Shown: positions 11,507 through 60,826, counted from the stretch's first letter. The stretch is DNA of 64,000 nucleotides from an uncultured Bacteroidota bacterium (GCA_902788805.1 CADALO010000002.1:66349-130348); one strand, 5' to 3'. The notes: a model not told the origin generated them from the letters alone. Numbers and translations: made by a program.

Positions 11507-11593
11507 ATTGTTGAATTTATGATTGTTAACTTATAAATAGCGGCCTAAGGCCCTCGCCCGCCCTTCCACGCGCCAAGCAGGGACCAACACTGG

Positions 11594-11677
11594 TTGTTGT
11601 CCGCTTGTTGTCCGCTTGATGTCCGCTTGTTGTCCGCTTTAAAAGCGGACAACAAGCGGACATCAAGCGGACAACAA
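11594..11677. repeat. near-perfect hairpin whose arms are tandem 11-nt units TTGTTGTCCGC / TTGATGTCCGC
   Basis: ttgttgtccgc ttgttgtccgc ttgatgtccgc ttgttgtccgc ttt | aaaa gcggacaacaa gcggacatcaa gcggacaacaa. The roughly 33-bp complementary arms show no mismatch. Lies between the LptD-like stop (11732) and the MerR start (11506). Confidence 0.9.
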
Positions 11678-11731
11678 AACCTTGCCTGATATGTATGAAG
11701 TGCGTTCCATTATCGTCATTTTCAGCTGTTT

Positions 11732-22284: not shown

Positions 22285-22335
22285 ATAAATAAAAATAAAC
22301 AAAACACATTGCCCCGCACAATGTGCGAGGCAATG
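22285..22335 (-). terminator. orphan terminator-like hairpin plus T-rich tail (minus strand)
   Basis: cattgccccgcaca a tgtgcgaggcaatg (14-bp arms, 1 mismatch) at 22307-22335. On the minus strand it is followed by GTGTTTTGTTTATTTTTATTTATG. No annotated minus-strand gene ends here. Confidence 0.35.
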
Positions 22336-22622
22336 ATGTCTTTTATACAGTAACGGCGCTCTTCAGCCCCTATTTCTTCACAATTGTCTTCACTCCGTAT
22401 TTGTCTTTGGTGCGCACCACTAGGAGGGTTGCTGACAAAATGTATACCCTTTTCAAAATGCATAGTCACAAAAAAGTGCTATTTCGCTGCAAAGAAATGC
22501 AAAAAAATACAAACCCATCATAATATTCTATTTAAAAAGACTTTATCCGAAGATTTTTTTCAATATGACACTTCTGCAAAAAAACACCACCAAACAGACC
22601 CACATAGGACAATCTACCTAAA

Positions 22623-22828
22623 AAGTTATTAACAAAATTCTATCAAACTTTACCAATGTAAAATTTGATAAGAATTTGGTAAAACTTTGAGTAAACTTTG
22701 ATAGGAAGATGGTACCTCGAAATCAGGGAGTTAAAATTTGGCCATTTTTGCCCTTTTTCGGCCCCTTCCGGAGGTGAGTTATTAACAATTTCGGAGGCCT
22801 GTTTTTGGCGAAAATGAGTTTGGCACGG
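22623..22828. repeat. dispersed intergenic element, copy A (inverted relative to copies B and C)
   Basis: Aligns over about 206 nt with the reverse complement of 32040..32250. This includes a 54-nt identical block (22647-22700 = rc 32173-32226). GTTATTAAC palindromes at 22625 and 22778. Confidence 0.9.
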
Positions 22829-22975
22829 CATCCGGAGCGCAGGCTTCCAGCCTGCAAGAATTTCGGCACGGAAAACATCGGCAAAAGTCTGTCGGTGTCC
22901 ATCTATACTTCCACGCATTTTCACAAAAAATCCCTCTACATACAACATTTTCGGGGTTTTGACGTAATTGTCTGT

Positions 22976-31989: not shown

Positions 31990-32039
31990 TCTCTGCCCAG
32001 GAAAGGGCTGTCAGCAAAACTGACAAAAGTGGATTGACA

Positions 32040-32250
32040 CCGTGCCAAAAATGGAGTGCGGTGCCATAAAAAACGCCCTTCAAAAATGTTAATAACTTTT
32101 CATTTTCAGCCTCAAAAAAGGCCAAAAAACGGCATTTTTCAACACGCTGATTTCCAGATACCAAATTCCTACCAAAGTTTACTCAAAGTTTTACCAAATT
32201 CTTATCAAATTTTACATTGGTAAAGTATGATAGATTTTTGTTAATAACTT
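32040..32250. repeat. dispersed intergenic element, copy B
   Basis: See copy A. Contains five phased 11-nt units at 32159-32213 (TACCAAATTCC TACCAAAGTTT ACTCAAAGTTT TACCAAATTCT TATCAAATTTT) and GTTAATAAC at 32088 and 32240. Confidence 0.9.
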
Positions 32251-32386
32251 GATAGATTTTATAATCAGAAGAGCGGTGAAGAAGGGGCGGCAAGGTACGT
32301 ATGATGGGCATTGGAAAGTCCGGACCCAAAAGAACGTCAAATTTGAAAAAAGCATTCCCAATTGAGTAGTTTTTCGTACTTTTGCA

Positions 32387-32394
32387 GATAGCTT
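32387..32394 (+). promoter_or_regulatory. putative -7 box TACTTTTG for cutC
   Basis: TAnnTTTG match 32 nt upstream of ATG 32426. Confidence 0.45.
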
Positions 32395-32425
32395 TTATTA
32401 TCAAACAACGACATAACACTCTGAT

Positions 32426-33124
32426 ATGCACGTAGAAATCTGTTGTAATTCAATTCTTTCAGCGCGCAATGCCAAGGCGGGAGGAGCGTATAGGATTGAG
32501 CTGTGCCAGGCGTTGGGCGAAGGCGGAACAACGCCGTCGGCAGCGGCTATCGAATACTGTGTCAAGGAGTTAAATCTGCAGACGCGAGTGCTGATACGTC
32601 CGCGTGGCGGCAATTTCGTTTACGACAACGACGAGATGCGCGTTATTTTGCGCGACATCGAGCTGACCAAACACCTTGGGGCACACGCCGTGGTTGTGGG
32701 CTTCTTGACTGCAGAGGGCGACATTGATACCGAGAATACACGCAGAGCCGTGGAAGCAGCTGATGGTATGGGCATTACTTTTCACCGAGCTTTCGACGAA
32801 TGCCGCAATCCGAAGGAAGCTTTGGAGCAGATTATCGACTGCGGATGCCACAAACTGCTGACTTCGGGCTGCAAGGCGACAGCCTGGGAGGGACGTGAGA
32901 TGCTAAAAAAACTTCTATCGCAGGCCGGTAGACGAATAGGTATTATCGGCGCGTCAGGCATAAGAGTCGATAATGTGCATCAACTCGTCTTGGAAACAGG
33001 ACTTTACGAGGTCCACGCCTCCCTGAAACACACCGTTGACGGGCTCACTTGTACGGCCATAGACCAAGTGCGTGAATTTATGAACATTACGGACGATTTC
33101 CCCAATTATCCGCCAATTAACTAA
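32426..33124 (+). CDS. cutC: copper homeostasis protein CutC family
   Basis: 232 aa. MHVEICCNSILSARNAKAGGAYRIELCQAL..GGTTPS and ITFHRAFD motifs. Confidence 0.85.
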   Translation: MHVEICCNSILSARNAKAGGAYRIELCQALGEGGTTPSAAAIEYCVKELNLQTRVLIRPRGGNFVYDNDEMRVILRDIELTKHLGAHAVVVGFLTAEGDIDTENTRRAVEAADGMGITFHRAFDECRNPKEALEQIIDCGCHKLLTSGCKATAWEGREMLKKLLSQAGRRIGIIGASGIRVDNVHQLVLETGLYEVHASLKHTVDGLTCTAIDQVREFMNITDDFPNYPPIN

Positions 33125-37932: not shown

Positions 37933-37933
37933 G

Positions 37934-38006
37934 TGACCACGCTGGGGCTCGAACCCAGGACCCCATCCTTAAAAGGGATGTGCTCTACCTGCTGAGCTAC
38001 GTAGTC
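37934..38006 (-). tRNA. tRNA-Lys (anticodon UUU), copy 1
   Basis: rc = GACTACGTAGCTCAGCAGGTAGAGCACATCCCTTTTAAGGATGGGGTCCTGGGTTCGAGCCCCAGCGTGGTCA. 7-bp acceptor stem (one G-U), anticodon loop CTTTTAA, GGTTCGAGCC T-arm. CCA is not encoded. Confidence 0.9.
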
Positions 38007-38025
38007 AACGCATTGATTTTCCTTG

Positions 38026-38098
38026 TGACCACGCTGGGGCTCGAACCCAGGACCCCATCCTTAAAAGGGATGTGCTCTACCTGCTGAGCTACGTAGTC
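38026..38098 (-). tRNA. tRNA-Lys (anticodon UUU), copy 2 (identical)
   Basis: Identical 73-nt sequence, 92 nt from copy 1. Confidence 0.9.
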
Positions 38099-46431: not shown

Positions 46432-46657
46432 AAAACGCAATATTAGGACTGGATAACGACAAAGTATAAAAAATATTGTTTCAAGTATAAATATGTGTTT
46501 TTTTCGACCCTTCTCTGTGAAAAAGACGGCATCCGTAAAACACGAAAAGACCTCCAAAATCGGTGAAAATGCAAAATGACTCGCATTTCAAAGAATTTAG
46601 CATATATCCACCTGAAAAACAATATATAACAAAGGTTGTAAAAAGATTTTAGACAGG

Positions 46658-46784
46658 TCGAAAAAGGGCCAAAAACGCCATTTCTCAACACCCTGATTTC
46701 CAGGTACCAAATTCCTACCAAATTTTACCCAAATTCTTATCAAATTCTAACTAAAGTTCAAGATGGTAGAATTTGATAGGAATT
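46658..46784. repeat. dispersed intergenic element, copy C (diverged, same orientation as B)
   Basis: GGCCAAAAACGCCATTTCTCAACACCCTGATTTCCAGGTACCAAATTCC TACCAAATTTT ACCCAAATTCT TATCAAATTCT AACTAAAGTTC aligns with copy B and keeps the 11-nt phasing. It lacks the GTTAWTAAC palindromes. Confidence 0.8.
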
Positions 46785-46948
46785 TATCAAAAAGTCGGGT
46801 GGAAAATAGTATAGTGGACGGGCAGTTTCAAGACCAGTTTGGGGATAAAAAATTAGGGGCGATGTAAAAATCGGAAGCGAATTGTTACATATTAAAGCGA
46901 ACAGATAAAATGTCGAAAAACCCTTTATATAATACTTAAAACCAAATA

Positions 46949-47398: not shown

Positions 47399-47481
47399 CC
47401 TTCTTTTTACCAGTGCGAACAAATAAAATTTGGTCGTTCCGCGAAAAGTGTATATCTTTGCAAATCGAAACAATCGAAAAT

Positions 47482-48282
47482 ATGGGCAAAGTAGTATTGA
47501 TAACCGGTGCGTCGTCGGGCTTTGGCAAGGCGACGGCCGAACGTTTGGCGGCAAAGGGCTACACCGTTTATGGAACCAGCCGTAACGAGATGCAACACAA
47601 TGACATACACTTCCTTGTGATGGATGTTCGCGACCACGATTCCGTGTCGCGTGGCGTGGAACGGATTGTCGAGGAGCAGGGCAGGATAGACGTGGTTGTG
47701 AACAACGCCGGAATGGGCATCGGAGGGTCGCTCGAGATGGCCACCGGCGAGGAGATTGAGCTGCAAATGGGCACCAACTTCCGTGGCTGCGTCAACGTGT
47801 GCCAGGCCGTGCTGCCGGTGATGCGCCGGCAGGGTGGGGGACAGGTCATCAACCTCAGTTCCATAGGCGGCGTGATGGGCCTGCCGTATCAAGGCTTCTA
47901 CTCTGCATCCAAGTTTGCAATTGAAGGCTTTACCGAGGCTTTGGCGGCCGAAGTTCGCGGTTTCGGCATCAAGGTCTCGATGGTGGAGCCGGGCGATTTC
48001 GCAACCAACTTCACCGCGCGGCGCAAGAATTCCGAATTGACCGCGAAAAGCGCCGCCTACGGCGCCAGTTTCGCCCGCTCCTTGGAACTCATCGAGAAAG
48101 AGGAGAACGGCGGCCTACGGCCCGAAAAACTGGCCAAAACGATAGAGAAAATCATCTGCAGCCGTCGCCCACGCCTGCGCTATGTGGTGGCCAACCTCGA
48201 GCAGAAGCTTTCGGTGCTGCTCAAACGCATCATTCCAGGCAACTGGATGGTAGGGATTTTAAGGAACTATTATAAAGTGTAA
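47482..48282 (+). CDS. SDR-family oxidoreductase
   Basis: ORF 47329..48282. ATG 47482 gives MGKVVLITGASSGFGKA. Catalytic YSASKFAIEG. Confidence 0.85.
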   Translation: MGKVVLITGASSGFGKATAERLAAKGYTVYGTSRNEMQHNDIHFLVMDVRDHDSVSRGVERIVEEQGRIDVVVNNAGMGIGGSLEMATGEEIELQMGTNFRGCVNVCQAVLPVMRRQGGGQVINLSSIGGVMGLPYQGFYSASKFAIEGFTEALAAEVRGFGIKVSMVEPGDFATNFTARRKNSELTAKSAAYGASFARSLELIEKEENGGLRPEKLAKTIEKIICSRRPRLRYVVANLEQKLSVLLKRIIPGNWMVGILRNYYKV

Positions 48283-60397: not shown

Positions 60398-60530
60398 CAA
60401 ACTATTTTTGGATTGGCAAAAACAGATTTTTCAGATTTGCCATAAATGTGGTCGATAAGTATTGAAATAGCACTTTGTATGATATAGTTCATCGACGTAA
60501 TTGAGGCATAAAACAGCTGGTTCTGCACTG

Positions 60531-60649
60531 GGTCTTGTTCGTTCGTTGTTCGTTCGTTGTCCGTTTGTTGTCCGCTCGTTGTCCGATTACTGATCGAACA
60601 ACAATCGGACAACGAGCGGACAACAAATGGACAACGAGCGAACAAGACC
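60531..60649. repeat. second TTGTCCGC-type tandem-repeat hairpin
   Basis: ggtc ttgttcgttcg ttgttcgttcg ttgtccgtttg ttgtccgctcg ttgtccgatt ... aatcggacaa cgagcggacaa caaatggacaa cgagcgaacaa gacc. 11-nt units, with inner ~32-bp arms complementary apart from one G/A difference. Followed by CCCTTTTAT. Confidence 0.9.
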
Positions 60650-60826
60650 CCTTTTATCTATGGCTAAAGCAGTACGGCGCACTACTTTAGCCGATGGCCT
60701 ATCATGGGGCTTTAGTCAACCAATCAAAGTTTCAGCCATAGTTGAATCAACAAAAAAATAAGTTTTCTTTTTTGTACAATAAAGTCAAGGGAGAGTCGTT
60801 TTAAGTATATTAATTGTAAAAATAAA

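Follow-up and report, generated by a model that had tools for sequence, protein, structure and literature searches.

What kind of element is an array of short repeats, held in exact 11-nt steps, that recurs three times between genes in one stretch of a bacterial genome, and does it act as DNA or as RNA? The question is raised by 64,000 nt of sequence from an uncultured Bacteroidota bacterium (GCA_902788805.1, CADALO010000002.1:66349-130348), the whole of which is referred to below as the window. A sequence-only reading had described three copies there (A, B and C) and had left the choice between an iteron or arm-site array, a regulatory cassette and a non-autonomous mobile element. Dispersed non-coding repeats have barely been charted in Bacteroidales, and the control of transcription in uncultured ruminant-gut lineages is almost unstudied.

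Three copies of one element in the window

We built a profile from the three copies and searched the window with nhmmer. All three were recovered (E-values from about 1e-74 to about 1e-47, Table 1) and no other place in the 64 kb reached a comparable score. Copy C has a degenerate distal end and may extend to about 46559. The details given earlier for copies A and B were reproduced as well. The longest run of identity between copy A and the reverse complement of copy B is exactly 54 nt (22647-22700 versus 32173-32226). The CAAA cores of copy B follow each other in steps of 11 nt (32162, 32173, 32184, 32195 and 32206), as do the TTTG cores of copy A (Table 1), and GTTAWTAAC occurs in pairs that are 153 nt apart in copy A (22625 and 22778) and 152 nt apart in copy B (32088 and 32240). 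The pattern TTTGRTAN4TTTGRTA, with at most one mismatch, is matched five times in the window against 0.14 matches expected, and all five matches lie within the copies.

Table 1. Positions of the three copies and of their parts, counted from the first nucleotide of the window
Feature	Position	Strand	Basis or remark
Copy A	22606-22839	+	nhmmer E 6e-74 (profile from the three copies); A/B subfamily; orthologues L021, L033, L037, L042
Copy A, gene-proximal palindrome GTTATTAAC	22625-22633	.	A/B subfamily only
Copy A, two inverted iterons (TCAAACTTTAC and preceding unit)	22633-22653	-	sequence reading, family alignment
Copy A, five direct 11-bp iterons	22658-22712	+	TTTG cores at 22664, 22675, 22686, 22697; fifth core, at 22708, is GATG
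Copy A, near-invariant box GGTACCTCGAAATCAG	22711-22726	+	alignment
Copy A, distal segment with G/C clusters between A5 or T5 runs, GTTAAAATTTGGCCATTTTTGCCCTTTTTCG	22727-22760	+	alignments
Copy A, distal palindrome GTTATTAAC	22778-22786	.	A/B subfamily; counterpart in L009-type copies is GTTATCAAC
Copy A, distal-end motif TTTGGCACGG	22819-22828	+	common to A, B and L009-type subfamilies; absent from C type
Copy B	32031-32268	-	nhmmer E 3e-68; A/B subfamily; orthologues L014, L020, L044, L046/L047, L056
Copy B, box CTGATTTCCAGATACC (+ strand reading)	32147-32162	-
Copy B, five direct iterons (CAAA on + strand)	32161-32215	-
Copy B, two inverted iterons	32220-32240	+
Copy C, core	46647-46801	-	nhmmer E 2e-47; C subfamily; orthologues L005, L022, L024, L035
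Copy C, box CTGATTTCCAGGTACC	46693-46708	-
Copy C, five direct iterons	46707-46761	-	CAAA at 46708, 46719, 46730, 46741; first unit diverged
Copy C, gene-proximal end motif of C subfamily, CCGACTTTTTGATAAATT	46781-46798	-

All three copies are intergenic, and the neighbouring genes had been named correctly for each of them. Copy A has smpB (+ strand, start 22976) on one side; read on the minus strand, it lies upstream of a small terminated transcription unit, followed by a gene for an alpha-oxoamine synthase (serine-palmitoyltransferase-like) and a threonine/cysteate-synthase-like gene. Copy B is placed between a U32-family gene (stop 31989) and cutC (start 32426), 176 nt upstream of the latter. 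Copy C is placed between a gene of 1170 aa on the minus strand and a lipoprotein gene of 134 aa (46949), after which comes a KdsR-like reductase gene. This reductase, a short-chain dehydrogenase (47461-48282, + strand), scores 388.9 bits on the NCBIfam model for 3-ketodihydrosphingosine reductase, below the cut-off of 400; a short-chain dehydrogenase is also found downstream of the element copy in the related locus L005. With copy A ahead of the synthase pair and copy C ahead of the KdsR-like reductase gene, two of the three window copies precede genes of the sulfonolipid/sphingolipid type.

A dispersed family in uncultured gut Bacteroidales

The family had been presented as three copies. It is larger: at least 35 more copies lie outside the window, giving at least 38 in total (36 distinct), and these are spread over about 15 or more independent loci and kept in relatives, so that the element is neither confined to the window loci nor devoid of conservation. 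One genome per species was scanned with a pattern taken from the conserved box, which yielded at least 11 true copies. These belong to five MAGs of uncultured Bacteroidales, with sheep, yak and reindeer among the ruminant-type samples. Scanning metagenome contigs with a second pattern added at least 24 copies from ruminant metagenomes, and one extra copy, upstream of cutC, was not caught by the first pattern. The estimated density is about one copy per 20-80 kb of sequence seen. Gene calls in the related loci, which carry L numbers here, are ORF-based.

Neither the plasmid nor the phage record collections held a match, and no viral contig with a copy was among the matches listed for the second pattern; an origin in a plasmid, phage or virus was rejected on these grounds. 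At the gathering threshold, Rfam reports two tRNAs only in the window, and a relaxed search of the element returns only chance matches to microRNAs. The earlier statement that no named family fits is in line with these searches. A small ORF starting from AATGGCG was also discarded, its start codon and frame not being conserved. We conclude that the copies form a real and previously undescribed family of non-coding elements of about 160-240 bp in uncultured gut Bacteroidales. The consensus and model allow annotators of these genomes to label or mask the elements as a new feature.

Anatomy of the element

Full copies measure 215-237 nt and share a common core of about 160 nt. On the strand that reads TTTG, the core is composed, in this order, of inverted iterons (two in most copies, three in the C subfamily), a variable spacer of 4 nt, five direct iterons, the box GGTACCTSGAAATCAG, GTTGA, and G/C clusters between T5/A5 runs. 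In copy A the spacer is CAAT (22654-22657) and places the inverted iterons head-to-head with the first direct iteron. The initial description as an iteron array was accurate, the direct and inverted 11-bp units being in exact register. The five direct cores lie at offsets -47, -36, -25, -14 and -3 from the box, and this register is the same in all 34 distinct arrays, with no indels. Such tandem direct repeats of about one helical turn have the geometry of plasmid-type iterons. Each unit takes the form TTTGRTA followed by RRAN, with nine of its 11 positions constrained, including the G and the T-A steps.

Individual units have quirks that are common to all copies: the third interval, TTTG-AGTAAAC, is one base off, and the fifth core reads TTTG or GATG. 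Since these quirks are shared, the copies must be homologous, descending from one ancestral module and not from operators that evolved independently. A search of the window and of about 350 kb of related loci found no array of two units outside the elements. The invariance of the box GGTACCTSGAAATCAG is partly imposed, because the box formed part of the search patterns.

T5 and A5 runs are exchanged between subfamilies, and beyond the core the subfamilies differ at their ends. In the A/B subfamily, GTTAWTAAC flanks the core on either side and TTTGGCACGG lies distally; the distal part recurs in the L009 type, and the C type has CCGACTTTTTGATAAATT at its proximal end. The palindromes that had been described as bracketing the core are thus present in the A/B subfamily but are not a family-wide feature (the test for flanking inverted repeats was negative in 28 of 30 copies). 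At their distal end, copies of the A, B and L009 types have TTGGCACGGTGYCAA or TTTGGCACGG, a near-palindrome (32036-32050 and 22817-22828 in the window; also seen in L021 and L046).

Conservation and orientation

Array identity is 90-95% at most orthologous loci, against 60-79% in the flanks, and it exceeds that of both flanks by 11 points or more in five of 10 orthologous pairs. Between copy B and L046, whose CutC proteins are 89% identical, identity is 94-97% in the array, 70-80% in the rest of the spacer and about 95% in the first cutC codons. Taken pairwise by segment, an array value of 94% stands beside 72-79% in its flanks. Two comparisons, of copy C with L005 and with L022, count against selection on the array, which is slightly less identical there than the segment of inverted units. 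The paralogues A and B have arrays that are 94% identical, a value that could in part reflect gene conversion instead of selection. Together with the constant register and the nine constrained positions per unit, the identities between orthologues show selection on the DNA sequence of the array. Most dispersed repeats decay once inserted; this family keeps its array as conserved as adjacent coding sequence.

The copies cluster by locus across species and not by genome, which indicates that they are old and stably inherited, and all orthologues at a given locus are in one orientation. Downstream of the strand that reads CAAA, a co-directional gene is found at about 12 of the 14 informative independent loci (one-sided binomial, about 0.006), whereas on the opposite side genes point away from the element at only 8-9 of these 14. 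Exceptions to the bias are L012, which sits between convergent genes, and L013, which faces a convergent gene. An orientation set by the direction of replication was rejected: copies A and B are in opposite orientation, yet GC skew has the same sign across 20-36 kb.

The downstream genes have canonical TAnnTTTG promoters of their own, 190-290 nt after the box, that is, 100-170 nt beyond the edge of the element (the cutC promoter, for example, is TACTTTTG, 45 nt before cutC). The distance from element to promoter is variable and long for a classical activator, and the downstream genes (cutC, kbl, prfA and genes for an ECF sigma factor, a glycosyltransferase, an SPFH protein, lipoproteins and sulfonolipid/sphingolipid-type enzymes) have no single functional theme; both points count against a regulatory module. 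Among the three readings offered at the outset, the regulatory cassette is the best supported, on account of the purifying selection at orthologous loci and the orientation bias toward the downstream gene.

A candidate docking module for an oligomerising protein

The explanation that we favor, with a probability of roughly 40%, is that of a duplicated and now fixed cis-acting DNA module that would bind an oligomerising protein. One ancestral sequence would have been duplicated or mobilised in a ruminant-gut Bacteroidales lineage, possibly by transposition long ago, and the modules would since have reached fixation at about 15 or more loci between genes, where they would be passed on vertically and kept by the host. 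The element most likely acts as DNA and not as RNA. On one face of the helix, seven 11-bp iterons would be displayed, namely a head-to-head pair, four further head-to-tail units and one inverted unit on the other side; together with the box GGTACCTSGAAATCAG, they may form a multi-site docking platform for a sequence-specific oligomerising protein. This protein would bind the head-to-head pair and then extend along the head-to-tail units, with the invariant box marking a boundary or providing a second site. The complex would keep one orientation and stand 100-170 bp upstream of an ordinary sigma-A promoter, that of the adjacent gene, whose transcription, we infer, it could modulate through distant activation, repression, wrapping, a barrier or insulation.

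If the binding protein exists, the family represents a ready-made map of its targets and an example of regulatory wiring by the spread of whole modules. A broader proposal, which we regard as distinctly unlikely, gives the arrays the role of cis-elements in a global regulatory or chromosome-organising system specific to the clade. One oligomerising protein would use tens of fixed, oriented platforms per genome, and the regulon would have been wired by spreading one module of 160 bp instead of evolving each operator separately.

Alternative explanations

The alternative that survives best, although we consider it unlikely, is a non-autonomous, MITE-like element in which the 11-bp units would be subterminal transposase-binding sites and the copies would be insertions with no host function. 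If the family is an old mobile element, its iterons would be the binding sites of a transposase. The elements are indeed small (160-240 nt), non-coding, multi-copy and lacking a conserved ORF, as MITEs are, and they occur as several subfamilies at unrelated loci. Two copies from one reindeer MAG (L012 and L019, both 237 nt) end in inverted repeats of 18-20 nt, with CCGACTTTTTGATAAATT found inverted at the other end as an 18-nt match that is perfect in L012 and has one mismatch in L019; the position of L012 between convergent genes also suits an insertion without function. However, flanking inverted repeats are at the level of cross-copy controls in 28 of 30 copies, and beside L012 and L019 no target-site duplication is visible and no clean empty site is available for comparison. 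At the L012 locus the search for an empty site was uninformative: the closest full-length relative of the neighbouring tilS is 58% identical, and a 90% match covers 79% of the query on a contig of 788 bp. The earlier mobile-element reading has in its favor the terminal inverted repeats of two copies in one MAG; the clustering by locus speaks against it, and no target-site duplication was found.

Further points weigh against a mobile element of this kind. The build is asymmetric, with two or three units set against five plus a unique segment of 60 nt on one side only. Copies persist at their loci across species, the array is mostly better conserved than the flanks and the orientation bias toward genes is strong. 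There is no transposase nearby, no copy came from the viral contigs, plasmids or phages searched, and none of the 58 loci examined carried an autonomous element combining such ends with a transposase. Variation in occupancy at the cutC locus can be read in favor of mobility, the element being present at CutC identities of 100, 98, 89 and 84% and absent at 85, 83, 81 and 77%, but the difference comprises the whole region of 436 nt and is not a clean insertion. A composite transposon formed by the inverted copies A and B was rejected, because what they enclose is housekeeping genes and because their loci lie apart in relatives.

It is very unlikely, in our view, that the copies are paralogous small RNA genes or cis-acting RNA leaders whose UACCAAA/UUUGGUA motifs serve as a sponge for an RNA-binding protein. 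In favor of such RNAs, the family is scattered between genes, its sequence is conserved and its copies are oriented consistently with respect to the adjacent gene, and repeated single-stranded motifs may recall protein-sponge RNAs, by analogy with what is generally known of these. The signals of an RNA gene are nevertheless absent: Rfam gives no match at the gathering or relaxed threshold, the Bacteroidetes -7 box TAnnTTTG is missing in and beside every copy on either strand, and no intrinsic terminator is found inside the elements. The RNAalifold consensus of 14 copies is weak (-6.7 and -2.2 on the two strands), and U-runs become A-runs between subfamilies. The only palindrome, formed by the first inverted and the first direct iteron, has no covariation. 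Analysis of RNA covariation, proposed along with the original description, was carried out and came out negative, with a negligible consensus fold and no compensatory change.

Related structural candidates were set aside as well. A conserved RNA fold was rejected, the only helices predicted by RNAalifold joining different iterons. A hairpin or cruciform at the head-to-head iteron pair, and likewise a palindromic repeat of the REP/BIME type, would depend on the one palindrome, which contains recurrent C-A mismatches and nothing compensatory. As for promoters, the lack of TAnnTTTG rules against a standard Bacteroidetes promoter within the element; the units fall off this consensus because they read TA-N3-4-TTTG, with one or two extra bases. 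A sigma-54 promoter (TGGCACG-N4-TTGC) was considered at TTTGGCACGG, where TGGCACG, which occurs in A, B and L009-type copies, resembles a -24 box; the -12 element, however, is lacking or varies, and the C type is without the motif. An ECF-type promoter, GGAAAT-N17-GCGTTT, was dismissed by eye, its putative -10 element not being conserved.

We attach equally little credence to a shape-driven element, in which phased A3T3 and A5/T5 tracts would curve the DNA and attract nucleoid proteins or RNA polymerase with no sequence-specific recognition. AAATTT-type tracts recur every 11 bp, the G/C clusters with A5/T5 runs continue past the array, and swaps between A and T runs are tolerated. According to a wedge model, whose result is only indicative, the window copies rank in the top 0.3-0.8% of 140-bp windows from the window and related loci, and in the top 0.14-0.6% within the window itself. 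Under the same indicative model, however, when compared with AT-rich windows only, the copies fall between the 2nd and the 31st percentile even with the best of six offsets, and intrinsic curvature was rejected as the main property, being unexceptional among AT-rich DNA. The period of 11.0 bp is also out of step with the helical repeat of 10.5 bp, and the nine conserved positions of each unit include the G and T-A steps, which shape does not require.

Least of all do we expect a substrate of site-specific recombination, whether attP-like, with arm-type repeats next to a CCTG-N5-CAGG core, or an invertible segment subject to phase variation. In its length of about 200-240 bp, in having direct as well as inverted repeats next to a short inverted-repeat box, and in its A/T-rich bending tracts, the element would resemble attP as generally known, and the A/B copies are bracketed by GTTAWTAAC. 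The fourth core pair is not kept, however (CAGT, CAGA and CAGC variants), the copies do not flank inserted DNA, a recombinase gene was not noted in their vicinity, and a complete attP-like site is not expected in a chromosome. The context gives no support to the arm-site or att reading advanced at the start, and an inverton was rejected, with flanking inverted repeats not general, no promoter inside the element and a single orientation for all orthologues at each locus.

Likeness to known systems

A literature search for a described equivalent found nothing nearer than BrickBuilt of Porphyromonas gingivalis, a MITE-like intergenic element present in tens of copies, with units of 23 nt numbering from 1 to about 23 per copy (PMC4596501). 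BrickBuilt has small inverted-repeat ends and promoter activity and has been proposed to influence the transcription of neighbouring genes (PMC4596501). Both families are intergenic, belong to Bacteroidales, number tens of copies and place tandem short repeats between unique 'leader' and 'tail' parts. Compared by description, the element studied here differs in having 11-nt units of fixed number and register and an inverted unit pair, and in lacking general terminal repeats and a promoter consensus. BrickBuilt is the nearest described relative in kind.

RIP/BIME-1 of E. coli (with an IHF site), the Correia elements of Neisseria and the BOX elements of Streptococcus pneumoniae are short, modular, lineage-restricted intergenic repeats that do not code for protein. 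Some have a defined protein-binding site and some affect the expression of adjacent genes, and they are built around palindromes or terminal inverted repeats and capable of forming hairpins. Our element is like them as a scattered short intergenic repeat, but it has no conserved hairpin and does have seven phased iterons and an orientation bias.

Head-to-tail repeats of 11 bp have a geometry typical of cooperative binding by winged-helix or ribbon-helix-helix proteins. In parC of plasmid R1, ten 11-bp repeats are bound by ParR and adjoin the par genes, on plasmids; PHO boxes, bound by proteins of the OmpR/PhoB family, are direct-repeat units that overlap the -35 region and vary in number across the regulon. 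The element shares with both the head-to-tail period of 11 bp, divided into 7 conserved bp and a 4-bp spacer. Unlike parC, it has no adjacent par or rep genes, its neighbours are chromosomal housekeeping genes and it has no plasmid or phage match; a plasmid-type iteron or centromere array was therefore rejected despite the repeat geometry. Unlike PHO boxes, its array is 100-170 nt away from the -7 box and no shorter arrays occur outside the full element in the window and the related loci searched, so an operator of the PHO-box type for a response regulator fails on position and on variation in unit number. In kind, the element is a bacterial dispersed intergenic repeat, set apart by its fixed phased iteron array, its orientation bias and its strong conservation.

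Other features of the window

Several features near the copies, or elsewhere in the window, are recorded here in their own right. Between copy A and the alpha-oxoamine synthase gene lies a small independent transcription unit (22295-22470, minus strand), with a promoter-like TTTG...TTTCTTTGCA and, after some 150 nt, a strong intrinsic terminator whose stem has 13 pairs (22335-22307). A 68-aa ORF in this unit is probably not real, since it reads through the terminator. The unit is conserved in L037 and L042, has no Rfam match and has a fold z-score of -2.2; it could be a leader or a small RNA before the sulfonolipid-type genes.

In the window lineage, 436 nt (31990-32425) lie between the U32-family gene and cutC, and they hold two hairpins that resemble terminators, along with the element and a new promoter for cutC. 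In L054, whose CutC is 85% identical, the two genes are 3 nt apart (2497-2501). A U32-cutC operon seems to have been split in the window lineage. The most curved predicted DNA of the window is the cutC promoter region (32261-32440; end-to-end/contour ratio 0.63), downstream of copy B and outside the element.

Two near-identical tRNA-Lys(TTT) genes stand in tandem, 92 nt apart, at 37933-38098 on the minus strand. The window also contains a second, unrelated family of repeats with 11-nt units, at 11585-11689 and 60530-60650. It consists of four tandem GTTGTCCGCTT units followed by a perfect inverted copy, with arms of 36 nt that are 100% complementary (11605-11677), and its first copy lies directly past the 3' end of a gene of 871 aa.
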